Assembly: GCA_045546415.1 (NCBI GenBank)
Contig: JAZQCS010000092.1
Span: 280 to 64,279, forward strand
Direction: 5' to 3'
DNA length: 64,000 nucleotides
From: Clostridia bacterium
Lineage (GTDB): Bacteria > Bacillota > Clostridia > RUG12999
Position numbers and translations under genes: made by a program. The stretch's first letter is position 1, and the number at the start of each line of letters is the position of its first letter. The notes under the pieces were generated by a model that saw nothing but the letters and a program-made list of their open reading frames with translations, was not told the DNA's origin and ran no database searches. Below, in pieces: positions 4,055 through 44,612 of this stretch.

Positions 4055-4230
4055 GTTGCTACACAATCTTCATATTTTTTTCCAAATCGGGAAACACTTT
4101 GTAAAAAGGTGTTTTCCCTATTACTCATACCGATTTGGGCGAGATTGTGTAGCAACAATGTGGGGATTCACTTTTTTTGTGCGTTCTCATTTGTTGACGG
4201 GGGCGCACTTTTTTTATACCCTCAGGTCGC
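4055..4230 (+). other. Structured 5' leader: a 102-nt three-segment perfect hairpin followed by a GC hairpin plus T-run (possible attenuator)
   Basis: The outer stem is 15 bp (4055-4069 with 4142-4156). The middle stem is 9 bp (CCAAATCGG 4082-4090 with CCGATTTGG 4130-4138). The inner stem is 6 bp (AAACAC/GTGTTT). Then GTGCG...GTTGACGGGGGCGCAC is followed by TTTTTTTAT (4181-4219), upstream of RBS AAGGAGG and ATG 4289. Confidence 0.5.
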
Positions 4231-4288
4231 AACATGAATGTCGCGAAAAAAACACGGACCCTTATGAATAAATTTTAAGGAGGATATT

Positions 4289-5263
4289 ATGAGCAATTCA
4301 CAATCATCGCAAATCTCATTGGAAAACATCATTGCAACATCAATCAAAATCCCAGGAGTTAAAGTTGACCGAAAATCCTTTTTGCTCAGCACTTTTAAAG
4401 ATTTTGACAATTTGGAGGAAATATATTCTTCCGGTCCGATTTCAGCCGGTATTACTCAAGAAAAACTGGCTGCTATCACTCAGAAGCTTATTCTCACCAG
4501 GACAAGTCAATCGTCTATTGCCTCTTTTATTGCCGGAATCCCCGGTGGTTTTGCTATGGCTGCGACAATACCTGCAGATGTGTTGCAATTCTTTGGCATA
4601 GCACTTAGGCTGGCACAAGAAATATCTTATATATACGGTTCCGAAGATTTATGGGAAAATGGCGAGGTAAATGACGACATGGTTCGTTCCAGACTAATTA
4701 TGTATTGTGGGGTTATGTTCGGAGTTTCTGGTGCCGTTTCAGGTGTAAGGGTTCTTTCCGCACAACTTGCAAAAACCACATTAAAAAAGCTCCCGCAAAA
4801 AGCATTAACCAAAACCATCTGGTATCCCGTACTAAAGCAAATCGGAAAAGCTATTGGAATAAAAATAACCAAATCAACAGTAGCGCAAGGCTTTTCAAAA
4901 GCAATTCCGTTAATTGGTGGAGTCGTTTCAGGATCTCTGAATTTTGCTTCTATGATGCCTATGGCCAAACGTTTAGCTGAAGCACTTGACAAAGCAGCTT
5001 TCGATTATACATCCGAGGAGATGGAAGCTGATATAATGGTGCTCGAAAATCTTGCAGATTACACAGAGGAAACTGATATTCCTTCTGCTGACGAACAGCA
5101 TCCAAGTCACATAAACTCGTCTGCATTTGTCAATCTCCCGGCCGAAACCAACTCCTTATATTGCAACCTTGAAACAATAAAGAAACTTAAAGAGTTATTG
5201 GATATGGATGCAATAACTCAGGAGGAGTACGATATTAAGAAAAAAGAATTACTTGGTTTATAA
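4289..5263 (+). CDS. EcsC-like family protein with a C-terminal SHOCT domain
   Basis: The central AGIPGGFAMAATIPADVLQFFGIALRLAQEISYIYG motif resembles the EcsC/DUF697-type signature. The C-terminal LKELLDMDAITQEEYDIKKKELL is a typical SHOCT motif. RBS AAGGAGG precedes the start. Confidence 0.6.
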   Translation: MSNSQSSQISLENIIATSIKIPGVKVDRKSFLLSTFKDFDNLEEIYSSGPISAGITQEKLAAITQKLILTRTSQSSIASFIAGIPGGFAMAATIPADVLQFFGIALRLAQEISYIYGSEDLWENGEVNDDMVRSRLIMYCGVMFGVSGAVSGVRVLSAQLAKTTLKKLPQKALTKTIWYPVLKQIGKAIGIKITKSTVAQGFSKAIPLIGGVVSGSLNFASMMPMAKRLAEALDKAAFDYTSEEMEADIMVLENLADYTEETDIPSADEQHPSHINSSAFVNLPAETNSLYCNLETIKKLKELLDMDAITQEEYDIKKKELLGL

Positions 5264-7960: not shown

Positions 7961-8037
7961 GCGCCAGTAGCTCAGCTGGATAGAGTGTTTGGCTACGAAC
8001 CAAAAGGTCGGGGGTTCGAACCCCTCCTGGCGTACCA
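7961..8037 (+). tRNA. tRNA-Arg (anticodon ACG)
   Basis: I folded the cloverleaf by eye. The acceptor is GCGCCAG/CTGGCGT, the anticodon loop is CTACGAA, the T-loop is GGTTCGAACCC, and the 3' CCA is encoded. Confidence 0.85.
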
Positions 8038-8059: not shown

Positions 8060-8151
8060 GGAGAGATGGCTGAGTTGGCTTAAGGCGCACGATTGGAAAT
8101 CGTGTGTACGTTAGTAGCGTACCGAGAGTTCGAATCTCTCTCTCTCCCCCA
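8060..8151 (+). tRNA. tRNA-Ser (anticodon GGA), class II with a long variable arm
   Basis: The acceptor is GGAGAGA/TCTCTCC, the anticodon loop is TTGGAAA, the variable-arm hairpin is GTACG...CGTAC, the T-arm is GAGAG-TTCGAAT-CTCTC, and the 3' CCA is encoded. Its 3' part contains the putative prophage att core. Confidence 0.85.
8135..8147. repeat. Putative attL core (TCTCTCTCTCTCC) inside the 3' end of tRNA-Ser
   Basis: The same 13-mer recurs at 42506-42518 and, with one inserted C, at 42685-42698 beyond the integrase gene. Confidence 0.45.
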
Positions 8152-8289
8152 AAACATAGAGAAGGTTGTTTTTTGTGCATTTCGTACAGTTTCAACCTTC
8201 TTTTTGTTTGATTTATTGGTGTTTTTTGCAAAAACTTTTTATGTGTTTTATGTGGAAACATTCATTTTGTTACTATTTTTTGTTACTAA

Positions 8290-8325
8290 AACAGGGGGCT
8301 TATAAAAAGTCCCCTGTTCTTTTAT
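8290..8325. terminator. Hairpin terminator shared by the tRNA operon (+) and the prophage late operon (-)
   Basis: ACAGGGGGCTT-ataaa-AAGTCCCCTGT followed by a T-rich stretch on +. It lies immediately past the stop of the 2631-aa ORF on -. Confidence 0.65.
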
Positions 8326-32494: not shown

Positions 32495-32880
32495 CCCTCA
32501 CCGCCTTTCACCTTTTCAAAATAGAACTCTATCGGCTTTTCATTTTCGATGACATTGCCATAAGCAACACCGACTTTGTAAATGTAGTTGTTTCTTAATT
32601 TTCGTGGAATTTCTTGAATGTATATGCGGAACAATTCTAACGGATTTGCTCTCTTGTAATGGTTACACATACGGCAAGAGGGCATAAGGTTTGAAATATC
32701 ATCTGTGCCTTGTTCATTCCAACCTCTTTTTGCTACAAAGTGGTCTACCTGCATATCCTTATACTCTATTTTTCTACCACAATAAGCACATCTGCCGTTG
32801 TATTTCTCATATACCTTTTGCCGTGTTTCCTTGCTTATGCTCATTCCTGCCCACCGCCTTTCTCGGTTGGGCGATACCAT
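32491..32880 (-). CDS. HNH endonuclease
   Basis: CAYCGRKIEYKDMQVDHFVAKRGW...NLMPSCRMCNHYK is an HNH motif with zinc-binding cysteines. Confidence 0.8.
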   Translation of the reverse strand: MVSPNRERRWAGMSISKETRQKVYEKYNGRCAYCGRKIEYKDMQVDHFVAKRGWNEQGTDDISNLMPSCRMCNHYKRANPLELFRIYIQEIPRKLRNNYIYKVGVAYGNVIENEKPIEFYFEKVKGGEG

Positions 32881-33974
32881 TTAATATCAAAGCACAATAA
32901 ACGCTCTGTAAATTTTTGTTCAAATTCAGTTAAAGCCCTTAATAGACTTTTGCGGTTTTTTTCATAGTTGTATTCGCAATACTCTCGAAATGACTTTGTT
33001 TTAAAAAATTGCGGTTGGTTACACCAAGAAGCAATTGCATTATACAATGTTTTATAAGGTGATAAATTGTAGTTTTCGTGCCTCATAACATACGGAAGTG
33101 CCTTATACTTCATAAGGATTAAAATACGCTCAAAAAGTTCCACAATATCTTTAACCCAAAATTCATCAGTATAAGATGAAATATCATTTGGAGTATCGTG
33201 GTTATAGCCACAAAAACAATAAAACTTCGGGATTTTGTCAGTATGCTGACGAATTAACCGTAGTTTCTTTTCAACAATTTTTCGGTCTTTTATATTGTCA
33301 AAAGCGAAAAGATAATCACCTATCCAATTTGAATCAAAAATAACTTCGCATTTTTCGTCAGTGAGTAATCTTTCATCCATACCTTGTTTAAATTGAAATC
33401 TCTTCCCAGTTGCATTAAGTTCTTCAAAAATTCCTTTCCAATCTCGGCAAGACAACACATTATCGTCTAATACGCAAATATATTTTCTATTTGGGTCAAG
33501 AAACTCGGACACTGGACTATGTAATAAGCACTGTTTATAATTCTTATTAACACAAAATGAACACCCTCTTATACAACCTCTCGTAGTAAAACCAATTGAA
33601 TAATCGGTGTAATACTGTAATTTCTTTAATTTAACTCCCAACGATAATTGTTCTTTCACAAAATCATCATACAAATGATAATCGGGCATGCTATGCTCAA
33701 CCTCGTAAGGCAATGGTTGTGCTTTGTCATAATAAAAACCAGTTCCTCCGTGTTCTACCCAAGATAAGTCCAATATTCCGTCTGGAATTTTAGTGTTAGT
33801 AAACACTTTGGAAATAAAAACTTTATCGTAATTTTCAACGGTGTCATAATTCAGCAACAATTCAACAGTATGTCCTTGTGATTTGTACCAAAACGACAGT
33901 TTCATACACGCCAAATTAGGAAAACGATGTTTTTTTCTACCAATTAAATCGGCATCAACAATTCCTATTTTCAT
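32841..33974 (-). CDS. Radical SAM protein with a B12-binding-like N-terminal domain (phage-encoded, unknown substrate)
   Basis: CxxxCxxC at residues ~134-141 (GCIRGCSFCVN). The N-terminal MKIGIVDADL...GHTVELL...KVFIS pattern resembles the flavodoxin-like B12-binding domain of class B radical SAM enzymes. Confidence 0.7.
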   Translation of the reverse strand: MKIGIVDADLIGRKKHRFPNLACMKLSFWYKSQGHTVELLLNYDTVENYDKVFISKVFTNTKIPDGILDLSWVEHGGTGFYYDKAQPLPYEVEHSMPDYHLYDDFVKEQLSLGVKLKKLQYYTDYSIGFTTRGCIRGCSFCVNKNYKQCLLHSPVSEFLDPNRKYICVLDDNVLSCRDWKGIFEELNATGKRFQFKQGMDERLLTDEKCEVIFDSNWIGDYLFAFDNIKDRKIVEKKLRLIRQHTDKIPKFYCFCGYNHDTPNDISSYTDEFWVKDIVELFERILILMKYKALPYVMRHENYNLSPYKTLYNAIASWCNQPQFFKTKSFREYCEYNYEKNRKSLLRALTEFEQKFTERLLCFDIKWYRPTEKGGGQE

Positions 33975-34488: not shown

Positions 34489-36093
34489 TTATTCTTCAAA
34501 AACCTTGAACAGCTTATGCGTTCCGTCCTGAAGCTGCTTTTCTTCATCAGACATTTCATACCCTAACCGGCACAGTACATCGTATATGTAGTCAAGGCGC
34601 TTGTTTTCGTTGTGCCCATAATATGTACGGTATCCCACATCGGGACCGTCAGCCCATAACACATATGCATGGCGCAGCAAAGACTGGTAAGGATTTTTTT
34701 CGACCGTTTTTTCGATTTCCGCAAATTCAATGTTCTTTTCTCCGCCTTCTTTCGTGAATTCACCACGGACATATCTCATATAATATCCGCCACGCCCTTC
34801 TTCAGTCCACTCCTTCTTCATAAGGAATTTTGTCATAGTTCCAATATTATCCTTTGCAGTGCTTTCACTCACACCAAACACAAACTCCCGGCGCAATTCA
34901 TACGCCCTCTTGGTTGCTTCCTTCAGCTGCTCCGTTGCTTTTTCCCTCTTGGCTCTCTTTTTCTCTTCTTCCTTCTGTGTCTCGGTTAATTCTTCTTTCA
35001 CCTTATCCTTGCGGAAATACACCGCACCATAATTAATTGCAAAATACTGCTCGTCACCGTTCAGTTCGAACTCTTCCATAGCATTCAAATCCACAAACGG
35101 CATATAGCTCTTTTCGCACACACTATAACCCCAGCATTTGCCGTAATCAATCTCTTTCAGCCCTGCATCCAGGAAGAACTTCCGCCATTTGGCATTGTTC
35201 TTTGCCCGTTCCTGGTCATCTAAAGCCCTGCGGATTGCATTGTTATAATTCGATGTCCCTATATCATCAAGCAGCTTGTTCCGAAGCTTTATATCCTCCA
35301 CCCGATTCAGCTTGTCCAGGTCCATTAAGGATATCTGCCTCTCCGATGCCGCTTTAAGCTTGTCCTCGTCAAGTTCTGCAAGCTTAACCCTTCTGCGCAC
35401 CGTAGTCTGAGAAAACCCTGACTTTTCTGCAATGTTTTCAATCGTGTCCCCCAAATCAAGCAAAAGCTGAAATCCTTTTGCCTGTTCATAAACCGTCAGG
35501 TCATTTCTCTGAACATTTTCCATGAGCATAACTGTCAGCTGCTCTTTATAATCCATATCAGCAATCCTGCAGGGCAATACTTCAAGCCCGGCACCCTTTG
35601 CCGCTTCAAGTCTACGGTGTCCTATTATTACAGTATATCCGTCAGGCATCCAACCTTTTTCGAGGTTTTTTTCCATCTCGGAGCTAAGCTCCGTTTCCGC
35701 TTCAAGCTTCTTTATTTCAGCCGGTGTCAGATAATGCCCCCTCACCACCGTAAGGTTTTGCATCACACCTTTTACTTTTACACTTTCTGTAAGTTCTTCT
35801 ATGTCCCGGATTTCTTTTCTTGGGTTATCCGGATGTGGAAACAATTCTGTGGCGCTTATGTAGATAAGGCGACCCTGCCGCTTCTGTATTTTTTCATTCA
35901 CATAATTGCCCCAATCCATAGCTACCTTATTTGGGCTTCCAAGTGACTTTATATCTTCTGCACCTTTGCAGCAATCACACTCTTTACCCAACCTGACAAG
36001 AGTAAAATCCTTTCCGATTCCGCCCAAACCGGGAATAGCACCGCAATCCGGACAACATCTTTTTATTTCCCTCGCCGCTTTTTCGTTCAGCAT
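34489..36093 (-). CDS. ParB/Srx-like nuclease domain protein with an N-terminal Cys cluster and a long C-terminal extension
   Basis: The ParB N-terminal domain motif is present (VIIGHRRLEAAKGAGLEVLPCRIADM). An N-terminal CCPDCG...CDCCKG zinc-finger-like segment is present. 534 aa. Confidence 0.75.
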   Translation of the reverse strand: MLNEKAAREIKRCCPDCGAIPGLGGIGKDFTLVRLGKECDCCKGAEDIKSLGSPNKVAMDWGNYVNEKIQKRQGRLIYISATELFPHPDNPRKEIRDIEELTESVKVKGVMQNLTVVRGHYLTPAEIKKLEAETELSSEMEKNLEKGWMPDGYTVIIGHRRLEAAKGAGLEVLPCRIADMDYKEQLTVMLMENVQRNDLTVYEQAKGFQLLLDLGDTIENIAEKSGFSQTTVRRRVKLAELDEDKLKAASERQISLMDLDKLNRVEDIKLRNKLLDDIGTSNYNNAIRRALDDQERAKNNAKWRKFFLDAGLKEIDYGKCWGYSVCEKSYMPFVDLNAMEEFELNGDEQYFAINYGAVYFRKDKVKEELTETQKEEEKKRAKREKATEQLKEATKRAYELRREFVFGVSESTAKDNIGTMTKFLMKKEWTEEGRGGYYMRYVRGEFTKEGGEKNIEFAEIEKTVEKNPYQSLLRHAYVLWADGPDVGYRTYYGHNENKRLDYIYDVLCRLGYEMSDEEKQLQDGTHKLFKVFEE

Positions 36094-39862: not shown

Positions 39863-40495
39863 ATGGTAAAAAAAATCTTTGAGGAGCTCTGCAAACAAAA
39901 AGGGGTTTCTCCCACGAGTGTGTGTTCAAAGATAGGAATATCATCGGCAGCATACTCGCAATGGACGGACAAAACCGTCCCAAGAAATTCAACATTAAAA
40001 AGGATGGCTGACTACTTCGGTGTAACCACCGATGCGTTGCTTGGCTACATCGACATCGACTCTGTGCCAAACCTGCAGTCCGTTGATGAGCTTGTTGTTT
40101 TCGAGGAAATCGGAGTAATTAGTGCAGGGTATGACGGTCAGGCAATCGAAGAACACACAGGCAAAAAAATAGACCTCCCGGCAAGTATGCTGAAAGGTCT
40201 CGGAAAAGATAATTTTTTTGTTTTGCGTGTCAGAGGAAACTCAATGTATCCAAAGCTCATTGACGGGGACAGCATTCTCTGTCAGAGATGTTCTTCCGTT
40301 GACAGCGGAGATACAGCTGTTGTTCTCTACGATGGTAATGAGGCTACCGTCAAACAAGTACGATATAAACAGGGTGAGGATTGGCTTGAACTTATCCCGG
40401 TAAATCCTGAGTACGAAACCAAGCGAATCGAAGGGTTTGACCTTGAACAATGTCGCGTACTCGGTAAAGTGGTTAAATTAATAAGAGATTTTTAA
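39863..40495 (+). CDS. CI-like repressor (XRE HTH plus S24 LexA-type autopeptidase)
   Basis: HTH is SKIGISSAAYSQWTDK. The S24 domain carries Ser in GNSMYP and a Lys downstream. I place the start at ATG 39863 (RBS GAGGTG), in frame with track ORF 39806. Confidence 0.85.
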   Translation: MVKKIFEELCKQKGVSPTSVCSKIGISSAAYSQWTDKTVPRNSTLKRMADYFGVTTDALLGYIDIDSVPNLQSVDELVVFEEIGVISAGYDGQAIEEHTGKKIDLPASMLKGLGKDNFFVLRVRGNSMYPKLIDGDSILCQRCSSVDSGDTAVVLYDGNEATVKQVRYKQGEDWLELIPVNPEYETKRIEGFDLEQCRVLGKVVKLIRDF

Positions 40496-40507
40496 GGAGT
40501 GAATTTT

Positions 40508-41155
40508 ATGGATAGTTTTTTTACACCAGGTGGATTGAAAATCAGACTTAATCTGGAATATTTTTATAGTTTGGTAGCAGATACCACAAATTTCTATACA
40601 GACAATGATATCATTAACAATGGAACAATAGCAAATTGCAGAAGTGCCATTGAGTCAATTTATACTTTACCTACAGTATTTATTCAGATATATACTCTCA
40701 TCGCAGTAATATCCCATACAAATATTTTTCAGTATTGTATAATTGTATCAGCATTATATTTTTTCGGCTGCATATGGCGGTGTACACAACCAATCGCTTT
40801 TATTACGGGTTGTTTGGGCTTTATTTCTTCTATATATAGAAAACTATCCCTTTTATTTTATATAGGACTTATAGTCTTATTTTTTTCATTAGACTGTAAG
40901 TATCTGATTATTCCCTATATCGGATTCAGATTTGCTTCTTTCATTTTTTCATTGCTTTTAAGTCATATTACTATGCTTATTACAAAGAGAAAGTATGGAG
41001 AAGCTTTCGGCGACGAAGAGATTTGTGCATTCAGAACTTTTCATATTTATACGAATAGTCCAGTTAATTTAACTACTTTTATTTATAATTACATAACACA
41101 CTGCAAAACCGAACCTTCTCCATTTCATCTTCGTAGTTTTTTGGCAGAAGAATAA
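40508..41155 (+). CDS. Polytopic membrane protein in the lysogeny module (candidate superinfection-exclusion or abortive-infection factor)
   Basis: About 5 TM segments, Cys-rich, no recognisable domain. It is immediately downstream of cI (RBS AAGGAG) and upstream of int. Confidence 0.6.
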   Translation: MDSFFTPGGLKIRLNLEYFYSLVADTTNFYTDNDIINNGTIANCRSAIESIYTLPTVFIQIYTLIAVISHTNIFQYCIIVSALYFFGCIWRCTQPIAFITGCLGFISSIYRKLSLLFYIGLIVLFFSLDCKYLIIPYIGFRFASFIFSLLLSHITMLITKRKYGEAFGDEEICAFRTFHIYTNSPVNLTTFIYNYITHCKTEPSPFHLRSFLAEE

Positions 41156-41285
41156 AAAAATCCCTCGGCTTCGTAACTTCCCGCATAGTGGGAGAACTAC
41201 CGCCGAGGGATATGTAAACTTATCACCGCTTCAGTGATACTTTTATTATAACACACTTTATACCACATTTCAATAGGAGAAATTT

Positions 41286-42416
41286 ATGAAAGAATTTTAT
41301 ATTTCCTCCACAAAATACAATATTCAAGAAAGAAAAACCAAAAAGCATGGTACGGTGTACGATGTTGTTTTTCGCATTGTAACTTTAGATGGCACAGAAA
41401 AGCAAAAGAAGCTTTCCGGATATACAACTAAAACCCTTGCCAAACAAGCTTATACGGAGTTTGTTACAGAGCATTGCGAGCTTGTTAAAAACAATCCTAT
41501 AAAAAAGAAAAACACAGATAAAGAAACCCCTACTGTTGGTGAGCTTATAAGGCAATATCTTGCAACGCTATCCAACCAGAATAAGGAAAGCTCAATTTAC
41601 GATAAACAAAACATATATAGGTTATTTGTTCTGCCGCACTATGATGATACGAAGATAACCGCACTTACCAAAGAGGAACTTTATTTGTGGCAAGACAAAT
41701 TATGGGCAACTAAGAACCCACGAACGAATGATTTCTATTCATATAAGTACCTATACAAAGTCCGAACTCATTTCCAGGCTTTCCTTGCCTGGGTGGAAAG
41801 CCGTTATGGATTTAAAAATTTCTTTCCCGAGGTTGCAAAACCCAAGCGCAGAACCGCAAAAACAAAAATGGAATTTTGGAAAAGAGAGGATTTTGAAAAA
41901 TTTATTTCTGTAATTGATGACCCCATGTATCACTGCCTATTTACTATGATGTTTTTTACAGGTAGACGAAAAGGTGAGATTTTCGCTCTTTCCCCCGATG
42001 ATGTTCAGGAGAGCACCATATCCTTCACTAAATCCTTAACAAGAAAAACACTCGATGGCAGCGCTTATAAAATCACCACAACAAAAACGGATAAGAATCA
42101 GGTAGTCCCGATTTGTGAAACACTCATAAAGGAACTACACAATTATTCACCCCAAACACCCTTTTTCTTCGGTGGAGAAAGACCACTTGCCGAAAAAACT
42201 GTTACTCGTGTTTTTGACAGAGGCTGCGAGCTCGCCGGTGTAAAAAGAATACGCATACATGATTTAAGACACTCCTTTGTATCTATGCTTATTCACCTTG
42301 GAGCCAACCTGATGGTTGTTGCTGACCTTATAGGCGATACCGTTGAGCAGGTGACAAAAACATACGGTCATTTATATGAGTCAGACAAGCTTGATATTAT
42401 ATCTAAAATAAAGTGA
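41286..42416 (+). CDS. int: Tyrosine-type site-specific integrase
   Basis: The C-terminal catalytic region carries HDLRHSF...LIGDTVEQVTKTYGHL (R-H-R-Y pattern) and an N-terminal SAM-like/AP2-like domain. RBS AGGAGA precedes the start. Confidence 0.9.
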   Translation: MKEFYISSTKYNIQERKTKKHGTVYDVVFRIVTLDGTEKQKKLSGYTTKTLAKQAYTEFVTEHCELVKNNPIKKKNTDKETPTVGELIRQYLATLSNQNKESSIYDKQNIYRLFVLPHYDDTKITALTKEELYLWQDKLWATKNPRTNDFYSYKYLYKVRTHFQAFLAWVESRYGFKNFFPEVAKPKRRTAKTKMEFWKREDFEKFISVIDDPMYHCLFTMMFFTGRRKGEIFALSPDDVQESTISFTKSLTRKTLDGSAYKITTTKTDKNQVVPICETLIKELHNYSPQTPFFFGGERPLAEKTVTRVFDRGCELAGVKRIRIHDLRHSFVSMLIHLGANLMVVADLIGDTVEQVTKTYGHLYESDKLDIISKIK

Positions 42417-42505
42417 TTCGTTACCATATTGTTACTATGTTTTAGAACATACAAGATATTGTGTTTTTTTAACTCGCAAAACACAACATATGGTATAACG
42501 GGGTT

Positions 42506-42593
42506 TCTCTCTCTCTCCGCCAAGCAAAAAGCATCACCTTTCGGTGGTGCTTTTTGTCTTACAGGAGACGAGAGAGTGAGAACTCTCTGCAAG
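42506..42593. repeat. att-like direct repeat copy 1 (putative attR): the 13-nt tRNA-Ser core plus ~75 bp containing a terminator-like hairpin
   Basis: TCTCTCTCTCTCC-GCCAAGCAAAAAGCATCACCtttcGGTGGTGCTTTTTGTCTT-ACAGGAGACGAGAGAGTGAGAACTCTCTGCAAG. The core is identical to 8135-8147. Confidence 0.55.
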
Positions 42594-42684
42594 TTTCGAC
42601 TTGCTTCCATTTCCCTTGTTATTTCAGTTTCAGAGAAACTTGCCGAGTAAACAAGACAACTTGTTTGGATTGTTTACTTTGGAA

Positions 42685-42773
42685 TCTCCTCTCTCTCCGC
42701 CAAGCAAAAAGCATCACCTATTGGTGGTGCTTTTTGTCTTGCAGGAGACGAGAGAGTGAGAACTCTCTGCAAG
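42685..42773. repeat. att-like direct repeat copy 2 (~95% identical to copy 1), abutting the remnant of the giant gene
   Basis: Copy 2 has the same 87-bp unit with 3-4 substitutions and one extra C in the core. Homology to the internal region of the giant gene starts at its right edge. Confidence 0.55.
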
Positions 42774-43140
42774 CCGTTCCAGATATATTTCCTCAGCAGT
42801 TTTTGACGGTCCTGCAATAGAAAAAGGATTTTTTTGTGAATTTTTCTCACCTTTTTGTATAGAATTATTATCGGTAGAATTATACTCCGTAGATTTTTTT
42901 TCATTTTTAGCCTTGACAATGTTTCGACTTTGGTGTACAATATTAGCGGAAAATCCAAGTTTCTCTAATGACTTAAGGAAATAGACCTTATTGTCGTTAG
43001 TGATTATCTTGGATTTTTCCATTTTATCAAGATTAACAAAATTGCTATTGTTCGTTGCTATGTCCGCAAAACCTTCTGTATACACATTGATTCTTTCGTC
43101 CTCATTTTTTATGGCTATTATAATAGGCAATCCATCCGGA
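42766..43140 (-). pseudogene. Degenerate fragment (about 90% nt identity) of the internal region of a giant-gene homologue; remnant of a second prophage copy
   Basis: 42781-43030 aligns to 11901-12170 and 43030-43140 to 12260-12370 of the intact gene. It has an in-frame 93-nt deletion. Track ORF 42714..43178 translates to ...DGLPIIIAIKNEDERINVYTEGFADIATNNSNF...AEEIYLERLAE, matching the giant protein. Confidence 0.7.
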
Positions 43141-43201
43141 CTGGAGCTTTTCCTTCCAGCCCTATTCTCTCCAACCACTTACCAACTTTTCCGACACAAA
43201 T

Positions 43202-43240
43202 AAAACCCCTGTTCAATTCTGTATTGAACAGGGGGTTTTA
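43202..43240. terminator. Strong bidirectional rho-independent terminator
   Basis: AAAACCCCTGTTCAAT-tctg-TATTGAACAGGGGGTTTTA is a perfect 12-bp stem flanked by A- and T-runs. Confidence 0.85.
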
Positions 43241-43301
43241 TAATTCGTGATTTTTGTGTCTACTTTCACATGACAAGTTCACATGCGGGGTATTTTCGCA
43301 T

Positions 43302-43487
43302 TTATTTATTGTCGTCCTTTGAAAACTTCTGTAAAACCGTAATTACGATAATTATAACAGCAATTACAACAAATATGCCAAGCATACCTGTTCCCATATA
43401 TTTAAGATTCTCTACAAAAGCCATATAATCCACGCCACTAAAAAAGTCAAGGACGGCTGTACCGATTTTATTGAAAAAATTCATCAT
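43302..43487 (-). CDS. Small membrane protein (possibly the gamma/anchor-like subunit of the Na+-decarboxylase)
   Basis: 61 aa with one TM segment (LGIFVVIAVIIIVITVL), immediately downstream of the beta-subunit gene. Confidence 0.45.
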   Translation of the reverse strand: MMNFFNKIGTAVLDFFSGVDYMAFVENLKYMGTGMLGIFVVIAVIIIVITVLQKFSKDDNK

Positions 43488-43499
43488 TTTGTTACCTCC

Positions 43500-44612
43500 T
43501 TATTTCAAAAAGAAGCTTAAGATAAGACCACCGGCAATAACCGATGCAATCTGACCTGAAACATTCACGCCCATTGAGTGCATAAGAAGGAAGTTCTGCG
43601 GATCTTCCTCAAGACCCATTTTGTGTACAATACGGCCTGCCATGGGAAAAGCAGAAATACCTGCGGCACCAATCATGGGGTTGATTTTCTTATCCTTAGG
43701 AAGGAACAGATTCATAAGCTTTGCAAAAACAACACCGCCTGCTGTATCGAAAACAAATGCAAACAAGCCAAGACCCATAATAAGCAATGTGTCGGGCTGA
43801 AGGAACTTTTCAGCTACCATCTGTGTGGCAATGGTAATGCCAAGGAAGATTGTAATAAGGTTTGCAAGAACCTTCTGGGCGGTTTCCGAAAGAGAATTGA
43901 GCACTCCGCACTCGCGGATAAGGTTACCAAACATAAGGAAACCGATAAGTGAAACCGATTCAGGAGCAACAATACCAACAACCATTGTAATTATAATCGG
44001 GAAAAGAATTTTTGTGGTTTTTGAAACACTTTTTGGTTTGTATTCCATACGAATCTGTCGTTCTTTTTTTGTAGTAAGAAGCTTTATAATAGGTCGCTGA
44101 ATAATTGGCACAAGCGCCATATAGGAATATGCCGCAACCATTATTGCAGACATATACTTTGAGCCGAGCTTGTTGGCTACTACTATAGATGTGGGGCCAT
44201 CCGCTGCACCAATAACCGCAATGGATGCTGCATCTTTAAGGTCAAAAAACATTGATGCTGTACAAAGTGTAAGGAAAATACCAAACTGAGCCGCCGCACC
44301 GAATATCATAAGTTTGGGGTTTGTAAGAAGCGGTCCGAAATCAATCATTGCACCTATACCAATAAACAGCAAAAGCGGGAAAAGCTCAGACGCAATACCC
44401 GCATCGTAAAGGGTCTGCAGGATACTGCCCTCACCCACTACACCGGAAAGGGGAAGATTAACAATAATTGCACCAAAGCCCATAGGCAAAAGCAAAGTTG
44501 GTTCCATTTCCTTTTTGATTGCAAGGTATATAAGTACGGCACCAATACACCACATAACCACCATCTGAGGCGTAATGTGTAAAACATTTCCAAAAATCAT
44601 TCCAAAATCCAT
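43500..44612 (-). CDS. Sodium ion-translocating decarboxylase beta subunit (OadB/GcdB family)
   Basis: A polytopic membrane protein with the OadB-like N-terminus MDFGMIFGNVLHITPQMVVMW...GAIIVNLP. I place the start at ATG 44612 (RBS GGAGG), in frame with the track ORF. Confidence 0.75.
   Translation of the reverse strand: MDFGMIFGNVLHITPQMVVMWCIGAVLIYLAIKKEMEPTLLLPMGFGAIIVNLPLSGVVGEGSILQTLYDAGIASELFPLLLFIGIGAMIDFGPLLTNPKLMIFGAAAQFGIFLTLCTASMFFDLKDAASIAVIGAADGPTSIVVANKLGSKYMSAIMVAAYSYMALVPIIQRPIIKLLTTKKERQIRMEYKPKSVSKTTKILFPIIITMVVGIVAPESVSLIGFLMFGNLIRECGVLNSLSETAQKVLANLITIFLGITIATQMVAEKFLQPDTLLIMGLGLFAFVFDTAGGVVFAKLMNLFLPKDKKINPMIGAAGISAFPMAGRIVHKMGLEEDPQNFLLMHSMGVNVSGQIASVIAGGLILSFFLK

Follow-up and report, generated by a model that had tools for sequence, protein, structure and literature searches.

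The locus analyzed here raises the question of how the 3' end of a tRNA-Ser gene came to be present twice beside an intact prophage, and how the second copy came to run into a piece of a gene that is also carried by this prophage. The window, which is the whole stretch of 64,000 nucleotides (64 kb) that was analyzed, is derived from an uncultured Clostridia bacterium that is Oscillospirales-like. In a preliminary description, two nearly identical units, each with a tRNA-Ser core and a terminator hairpin, were reported to be followed by a degenerate fragment of a giant phage gene, and the arrangement was considered to be the scar of a second integration at the same tRNA-Ser site.

The prophage in the tRNA-Ser(GGA) gene

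Two tRNA genes, tRNA-Arg (7961-8037) and tRNA-Ser(GGA) (8060-8151, forward strand), were called by ARAGORN, and the latter forms the attL of prophage E1, an element of 34.4 kb at positions 8148-42505. E1 is flanked by direct copies of a 13-nt stretch of the tRNA 3' end, the core TCTCTCTCTCTCC, which lie at 8135-8147 and, on the forward strand, at 42506-42518; the latter is the attR core (core 1) and is followed by G-CCA at 42519-42522. One end of the element is adjoined by the gene of its tyrosine integrase (41286-42416, forward strand), which has the Pfam domains Phage_integrase, SAM_3 (Phage_int_SAM_3) and Arm-DNA-bind_4, and the boundaries of E1 coincide with the empty site in the relatives L103 and L104. 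The P' arm (8148-8324, forward strand) supplies the tRNA with a phage-borne terminator (stem 8160-8168/8193-8201, followed by a T run) and carries two exact arm-type repeats TTGTTACTA, at 8267 and 8280. The P arm (42417-42505, forward strand) carries the arm-type repeats CGTTACCATA and TTGTTACTA (42429), as well as an inverted repeat (42449-42467/42478-42496). Across the 64 kb, the exact 9-mer TTGTTACTA is limited to these 3 positions (8267, 8280 and 42429), all within 150 nt of the cores, and the most plausible reading of its copies is as arm-type sites of the integrase.

L081, a metagenome scaffold obtained from a different sample, encodes a sibling integrase and is 97.6% identical to positions 40494-42533. 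Since this identity stops at the tRNA CCA, beyond which a different flank is found, the right end of E1 is placed at about 42522, and both repeated units therefore lie outside E1. Judged from the arm-type repeats, L081 and the prophage-free relatives, the right end is fixed at the tRNA CCA, and in annotation the CCA at 42522 would be given as the true right end of the prophage.

The last gene of the leftward late array of E1, after the endolysin gene, is a giant gene of 2631 aa (8325-16220, reverse strand). In Pfam, its product matches MuF_C/PBECR (residues 1237-1345, 48 bits) and LPD38 (residues 2208-2377, 65 bits), both above the cut-offs, and by this predicted domain content it is a polyvalent protein, in which several domains are fused in one large phage polypeptide. 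A zincin-like HEFAH motif (...TADHEFAHAV...) is also present in this protein. In phage records, the giant protein has remote DarB-like matches only (22% identity, Vibrio phages), and IMG/VR searches with its C-terminus, its MuF-C region and the neighbouring 519-aa protein yielded no relatives. A blastn search of 42400-43300 against phage records gave no match either. The other genes of E1 include those for a replication initiator, a ParB-like protein, a terminase, a portal protein, a major head protein and an endolysin (PHROGs), along with the integrase and an S24/HTH repressor (Pfam). Between the replication and packaging genes, a radical-SAM protein (32841-33974) and a large ParB-like protein (34489-36093) are encoded.

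A separate observation concerns the discriminator base of the tRNA, which is C at 8148 (attL) versus G at 42519 (attR) and in L101, L103, L104 and L105 (...CTCC-G-CCA). The tRNA-Ser(GGA) of the lysogen ends in ...TCTCTCC-C-CCA, and integration of E1 replaces the discriminator G by C. Bacterial tRNA-Ser has a conserved G73, and the altered discriminator could affect the charging of the tRNA-Ser of the lysogen.

Tandem tRNA 3' ends and the empty site in relatives

The two units, previously given as 87 bp and about 95% identical, are real and were found with a repeat finder and BLAST to be direct repeats of 85 nt at 42509-42593 and 42689-42773, with 3 mismatches (96.5% identity, E=4e-35). A self-BLAST of the whole 64-kb window returned three repeat pairs and no repeat beyond these, and none of the pairs is dispersed within the 64 kb. 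Each unit starts within the tRNA-Ser 3' end, CTCTCTCTCC-G-CCA, and contains a terminator hairpin, CAAAAAGCATCACC/GGTGGTGCTTTTTG, after which both units have a GA-rich segment with the terminal CTCTGCAAG.

All features of this region are on the forward strand. The first unit, which consists of core 1 and the trailer R1 (42506-42593), is orthologous in L103 and L105; its hairpin (42525-42556) has a stem that resembles the single trailer of L104, and its GA-rich segment (42564-42593) is an imperfect inverted copy of the core. A non-coding spacer (42594-42678) follows, in which the blocks GCAAGTTTCGACTTG, TTCAGAGAAACTTGC and CAAGACAAC are conserved in alignments with L103 and L105. Core 2, TTGGAATCTCCTCTCTCTCCGCCA (42679-42702), is a pseudo-copy in which 24 nt of tRNA-Ser, from the T loop through the 3'-terminal CCA, are repeated, and ARAGORN called no tRNA there; a C-to-G change in the T loop is common to core 2, L103 and L105. 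The trailer of the second unit, R1* (42703-42773, hairpin at 42705-42736), shares 96% identity with R1; the second trailer of L103 and L105 is not its ortholog. In its hairpin loop, R1* has kept an ancestral T, as in L103, at the position where R1 has changed.

Each unit can also be described as a long imperfect palindrome (42509-42576 and 42689-42756), in which GGAGACGAGAGAG, located past the terminator, mirrors the tRNA 3' strand CTCTCTCTCC and precedes a hairpin that resembles a T arm, GAGAG-TGAGAA-CTCTC. The same palindromic design is found in both trailers of L103. Exact-pattern scans of genome, viral and metagenome contig collections with the 22-mer CCGCCAAGCAAAAAGCATCACC gave no match, and neither did an exact scan of the metagenome contig collection with a 26-mer from the tRNA T-arm/acceptor.

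Relatives were identified by oadB, a host gene to the right of the repeats, for which the best match among species representatives was 84% identical; closer relatives (93-95%) were obtained via protein search, and their contigs were compared. In relatives with 88-90% oadB identity, synteny is lost. When the oadB, oadG and 154-aa ORF proteins of the window itself were looked up as exact sequences, no record of them was found. In L103 (GCA_054274335.1), the genes for oadB, oadG, tRNA-Ser, tRNA-Arg and a sugar transferase are adjacent and no phage gene is present within 10 kb, and both L103 and L104 (GCA_052836205.1) have an empty site with Bac_transf, tRNA-Arg, tRNA-Ser, oadG and oadB next to each other. 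No integrase is found within 10 kb in L103 and L105. In the orientation of the window, the tRNA-Ser of L103 is followed by a terminator, GGAGGGAGAGAATGAGAACTCTCTGCAAG, a spacer of ~95 nt and a second copy of the tRNA 3' end, TTGGAATCTCTCTCTCTCCGCCA, past which a second, different terminator, a second GA-rich segment and the oadG terminator are present. The same layout is found in L105, which is an independent assembly. With E1 excised in silico, the window can be aligned to this layout through unit 1, the spacer and core 2, and 42506-42768 is 76.8% identical to it (BLAST), with the coding DNA of both genomes at 76-87%. L104 has one unit only, of which the terminator stem, ATCACCTTCGGTGGTAT, resembles unit 1 of the window, and L101 and the host of L081 have yet another tRNA-Ser trailer. 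In L101 (4900-5120), a series of short hairpins comes after this trailer, with GTGAAAT(A) in front of each of them, and a flank of the same type also follows the E1-like prophage at the end of L081.

Because the prophage-free L103 and L105 carry the same layout of tRNA, trailer, spacer and core 2, core 2 and the spacer are ancestral, and the tandem layout is inherited in part of the clade and does not result from recent events in this strain. On this comparison, core 2 is an ancestral pseudo-attB, and it is probably the landing site of a lost phage. The view that the two units are the products of two recent integrations is contradicted by the orthologous unit 1, spacer and second 3'-end copy in L103 and L105. 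What remains of the second-integration scar is that the site is a phage att site and that a leftover of a related second element, 10% diverged, is present. An explanation by two successive integrations at one tRNA-Ser site in this strain, in which each unit would be one attR and the 95-nt spacer an element remnant, is in agreement with the 96% identity of the units and with the TTGTTTAC-type inverted motifs of the spacer, which recall the E1 arm repeats TTGTTACTA, and tandem accretion is a known process (PMC5704250). However, this model is already largely refuted by L103 and L105, in which unit 1, the spacer and core 2 have orthologs without a prophage in a species at 76-87% nucleotide identity. 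With this model, the giant-gene fragment would also be expected on the other side of the spacer, and such successive integrations are considered unlikely.

The lineage-specific part of the layout is limited to the 72 nt after core 2, a 96% copy of the unit 1 trailer that runs into the giant-gene fragment; the second trailer of L103 and L105 is clearly different from R1*. It was also considered whether these 72 nt are simply a host flank or a phage arm, and neither fits cleanly: the native terminator of L104 is similar to R1, and the second trailer of L103 starts like that of L104.

The giant-gene fragment and the probable history of the site

The fragment at 42765-43140 (reverse strand; BLAST, BLASTP) is a relic of a second polyvalent-protein gene and corresponds to 11895-12366 in the giant gene of E1 (reverse strand, residues ~1286-1442). 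In BLAST, 42765-43032 is 91.4% identical to giant-gene positions 11895-12162 over 268 nt, and 43033-43140 is 100% identical to 12259-12366 over 108 nt, both on the same strand. Giant-gene positions 12163-12258 are missing from the fragment, which corresponds to 96 nt or 32 codons, in frame. The preliminary description was correct about the strand, the identity of about 90%, the position next to unit 2 and the internal in-frame deletion; the size of the fragment is 376 nt (giant-gene 11895-12366) instead of 360, and that of the deletion 96 nt instead of 93.

In BLASTP, a 154-aa ORF at 42714-43178 (reverse strand) matches the 2631-aa protein at residues 1286-1442, with a single gap of 32 residues. 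In Pfam, this ORF reaches no family, and the fragment does not encode a recognizable domain. Searched against 5.8 billion proteins, the fragment protein matched only itself; this word-index search missed the giant protein as a match for its own fragment, even though the giant protein is in the collection. The 96-nt gap removes residues ~1322-1353, and because it takes out the C-terminal end of the MuF_C match, it is regarded as a deletion in the relic and not as an insertion in E1. For annotation, this ORF, which is called a protein in the public record, is a pseudogene piece. The possibility that the fragment is an orphan Rhs/CDI-type toxin/CT cassette was considered and rejected: an identical 5' tract and a diverged 3' part are present, but the other features of such a cassette are lacking, as there is no complete domain and no downstream or partner gene, and the fragment ends in a linker.

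The differences between the fragment and E1 are unevenly distributed. All 23 mismatches are located in 42768-42984, and 42985-43140 is identical (156 aligned nt); an even spread of mismatches would place every one of them within the first 220 of the 376 positions with a probability of ~0.585^23 = 4e-6. The diverged tract (~10% over 220 nt) contains 10 synonymous and 11 non-synonymous codon differences. Since the fragment is a mosaic of a tract that is 10% diverged over 220 nt and an identical tract of 156 nt, it is interpreted as a relic of a second phage and not as a recent copy of E1. This comparison supports its being the leftover of a second, related element, which would be neither part nor recent copy of E1. 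The identical tract (42985-43140 versus 12211-12366) is broken solely by the 96-nt deletion and lies directly beside the 10%-diverged tract; the sharp boundary between the two is a mosaic boundary or a conversion tract. The 156 identical nt could also reflect gene conversion or an assembly join.

Another explanation does without a second phage. A piece of the E1 giant gene and a copy of R1 would then have been moved beside core 2 by template switching, ectopic recombination or gene conversion, which is compatible with the 156-nt tract that is 100% identical to E1, with homologous sequence at each of the switch points (the 17-nt core and CTC[T/A]GCAAG) and with R1* being nearly identical to R1. 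However, the other 220 nt differ at these 23 sites, and since synonymous and non-synonymous codon changes are about equal, the pattern is that of divergence between functional genes and not that of decay of a recent copy. In addition, R1* retains the ancestral hairpin-loop T that R1 has lost, and derivation of the fragment from E1 is judged very unlikely. Even more improbable is an assembly artefact, in which 42700-43150 would be a chimeric join of prophage strain variants via the repeated 108-156 nt. In favour of an artefact, the close relatives are all metagenome bins, the source contig (65 kb) is probably from a metagenome bin as well, and an exact 108-nt repeat is present at the right edge of the fragment. 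Against an artefact, both junctions are unique sequence, the fragment has its own 96-nt deletion inside the identical tract, and the left context (spacer and core 2) is confirmed in independent assemblies of relatives.

At the left junction, the fragment overlaps unit 2 at CTC[T/A]GCAAG, a microhomology of 5-9 nt, with CTCTGCAAG in unit 2 versus CTCAGCAAG in the giant gene; the junction reads ...GAACTCTCTGCAAG|CCGTTCC in unit 2 and ...TTCCTCAGCAAG|TCGCTCC in the giant gene. After the shared CTCTGCAAG, unit 1 continues into the spacer instead, which indicates that the right edge of the repeat is a deletion junction. A large deletion from the att side to the middle of the giant gene, as had been proposed before, is supported by this joint of 5-9 nt. 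The fragment starts 63 nt past the CCA of core 2, in the orientation that E1 has relative to its core, and a sibling phage integrated at core 2 would be expected to have its left end here. The flank to the right of the fragment (43141-43238) consists of ~60 nt and a bidirectional terminator (43202-43238), which closes the host oadG/oadB operon (43302-44612, reverse strand). When 43141-43200 was aligned with relatives, the score was no better than that of shuffled sequence. A third degenerate core at ~43166 (TTCTCTCCAACCA) and orthology of 43141-43173 to the second GA-rich segment of L103 were also considered and were rejected, as these scores equal those of shuffled sequence.

In the history that is considered probable, the tRNA-Ser gene is a hot spot that offers two landing sites and the relic reflects ordinary decay there: E1 occupies core 1, and a second phage was lost from core 2. 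The landing sites would be the own 3' end of the tRNA-Ser (core 1) and the older pseudo-copy of 24 nt that lies 180 nt farther downstream (core 2). R1, the spacer and core 2 are inherited and are probably the gene-less attL/attR scar of a much earlier integration. The intact 34.4-kb E1 is integrated in core 1 and has given the tRNA a new 3' end and terminator, and a second phage of the E1 kind would once have been present at core 2, with its polyvalent-protein gene nearest to the core, as in E1. This second phage may then have been almost wholly deleted by at least three deletions: one in which a short microhomology brought the middle of the giant gene up against the trailer that follows core 2, one that removed everything beyond residue ~1286, and one in which 96 nt were lost inside the remaining piece. 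The remainder would be the 376-nt dead gene fragment within a spurious 154-codon ORF.

Three routes may have led to R1*. The lost phage may have carried a copy of the tRNA end and the trailer in its attP, an aberrantly excised phage may have picked up the trailer, or the copy may have arisen by gene conversion or template switching from unit 1. The 88-nt duplicate in L005, which is described below, suggests that long identity blocks of tRNA end and trailer exist. In relatives of the integrase (L083, L097 and others; IMG/VR), the attP has a P' arm with its own terminator, unlike the host trailer, and because these readable attPs carry their own terminators, a phage-borne copy of the host trailer is not the norm in this family. 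No intact phage of the lost type was found, and for this reason its attP and its integration at core 2 are what we infer.

Read in this manner, the locus would be a further example of a well-known structure, namely a tRNA-Ser hot spot at which the remains of a prophage lie next to a secondary att core of ancestral origin. The locus illustrates the reuse of one hot spot by tRNA-Ser phages of gut Clostridia and how a short pseudo-copy of a tRNA 3' end can persist across species and capture a second phage. In annotation, it would be recorded as a locus with two predicted usable att cores. In addition, the 376-nt direct repeat brackets ~31 kb, which is most of E1, and is a possible substrate for homologous deletion of the prophage.

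The spacer, related loci and known systems

In the predicted fold of 42564-42702, the closing helix GGAGA(C)GAGAGAG is formed with core 2 and leaves the GCCA tail free, and a central helix (GCAAGTTTC/GAAACTTGC) and a 3' hairpin are present. The z-scores of the fold are -2.5 for the window and -3.5 for L103. The 3' hairpin (42646-42654/42670-42678) is AGTAAACA/TGTTTACT here and AGTTCACC/GGTGAACT in L103, with three pairing-preserving double substitutions by eye and two by RNAalifold on the MAFFT alignment. Based on such features, the region from the tRNA-Ser to core 2 (~140-167 nt) could be a maintained element beside which the phage relic is incidental. This would be either a structured RNA of ~140 nt with a tRNA-acceptor-like closing helix and a GCCA tail, or a gene-less, att-only element, i.e. 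a minimal cis-mobilizable element that travels with tRNA-Ser phages and offers a second landing site to them. Perfectly conserved non-coding blocks of 26, 15 and 9 nt between species at ~80% identity, the hairpin kept via double substitutions, the fold z-scores and the similar mini-inserts (171-211 nt) that occur independently in L005 and L096 point in this direction. On the other hand, the comparison is limited to two distinct sequences, the closing helix consists of GA/CT of low complexity, the element is absent from L104, no promoter was detected, and a covariance model had no matches beyond its training sequences in 1.4 Mb of relatives. In Rfam, 42380-43300 has no match near the gathering score, and a known structured RNA was not recognized there. 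Membership of the spacer in a wider RNA family was rejected on these Rfam and covariance-model results. A 19-mer of the spacer has one match in IMG/VR, inside a phage ORF (L111), which is consistent with chance. A maintained element is thought unlikely to very unlikely. If true, the tRNA-Ser mini-inserts of L005 and L096 would be further cases of it, and the locus would gain interest if conservation as an RNA, or mobilization as a minimal att element, were established for the spacer; the present evidence for this is thin.

Similar arrangements have been found elsewhere. The relatives of the integrase in IMG/VR (50-69% identity) all adjoin tRNA-Ser-type ends, ...CTCC[A/G]CCA, and have TGTTAC-type arm repeats. 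In L096 (~4230-4460), of which the integrase is 50% identical, the attR is followed by ~190 nt and a second copy of the tRNA-Ser 3' end, after which comes a host flank that in L095 and L098 adjoins attR itself. In L005, a buffalo-colon MAG of a different species (JAFYUI010000007), the last 19 nt of tRNA-Ser(GGA) and 69 nt of trailer are duplicated, 88 nt in total at 100% identity. These copies (9526-9613 and 9697-9784) are 171 nt apart, with a GC-rich 83-nt spacer that has its own terminator and no prophage between them, and within the trailer the T-loop region recurs in inverted form (GGGATTCGAAC). Mini-inserts of 171-211 nt between tRNA-end copies are thus observed at three independent loci.

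Lambda-type tyrosine integrases that target tRNA genes are encoded beside the att site, have arm-type repeats on both arms, and the phage copy restores the 3' end of the tRNA. E1 has the same organization, with its integrase by the att site, repeats on its arms and a restored tRNA 3' end, and differs in the short identity block of 13-18 nt and the change of the discriminator from G to C.

MuF-C is a PBECR-type predicted RNase, and polyvalent proteins have been proposed to be packaged and injected (PMC5512222). The intact giant gene, with MuF_C and LPD38 in a prophage with portal and terminase genes, resembles these systems (PMC5512222), whereas the fragment is a broken MuF-C end with a linker, a pseudogene piece and not a solo PBECR protein.

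Tandem accretion beside decayed elements, CIMEs, has been described for ICESt1-related elements of Streptococcus, in which a decayed resident keeps attL and attR without an integrase and a newcomer uses one att, resulting in a tandem array with copies of the target gene's 3' end at its borders (PMC5704250). In the same way, the 167 nt between core 1 and core 2 are bounded by copies of the tRNA 3' end and have no notable ORF. With regard to the origin of such a CIME, L104 lacks the segment, the spacer has arm-like inverted motifs, and no parent element was found in contig scans. The present case differs in that it consists of a prophage and a prophage relic instead of ICEs or IMEs, and in that the resident "element" is ~167 nt, gene-less and of putative mobility.

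In Dehalococcoides, arrays of direct repeats of the ssrA 3' end are found downstream of the tmRNA (PMC3146451). There, a serine recombinase, a 20-bp repeat and islands with cargo are involved (PMC3146451), whereas in the locus described here the integrase is a tyrosine integrase, the repeat extends 72 nt past the gene into the terminator, and the cargo is gone. Both have in common that copies of the 3' end of a small RNA mark successive integrations, and in Dehalococcoides some of these copies are fixed and syntenic across strains (PMC3146451).
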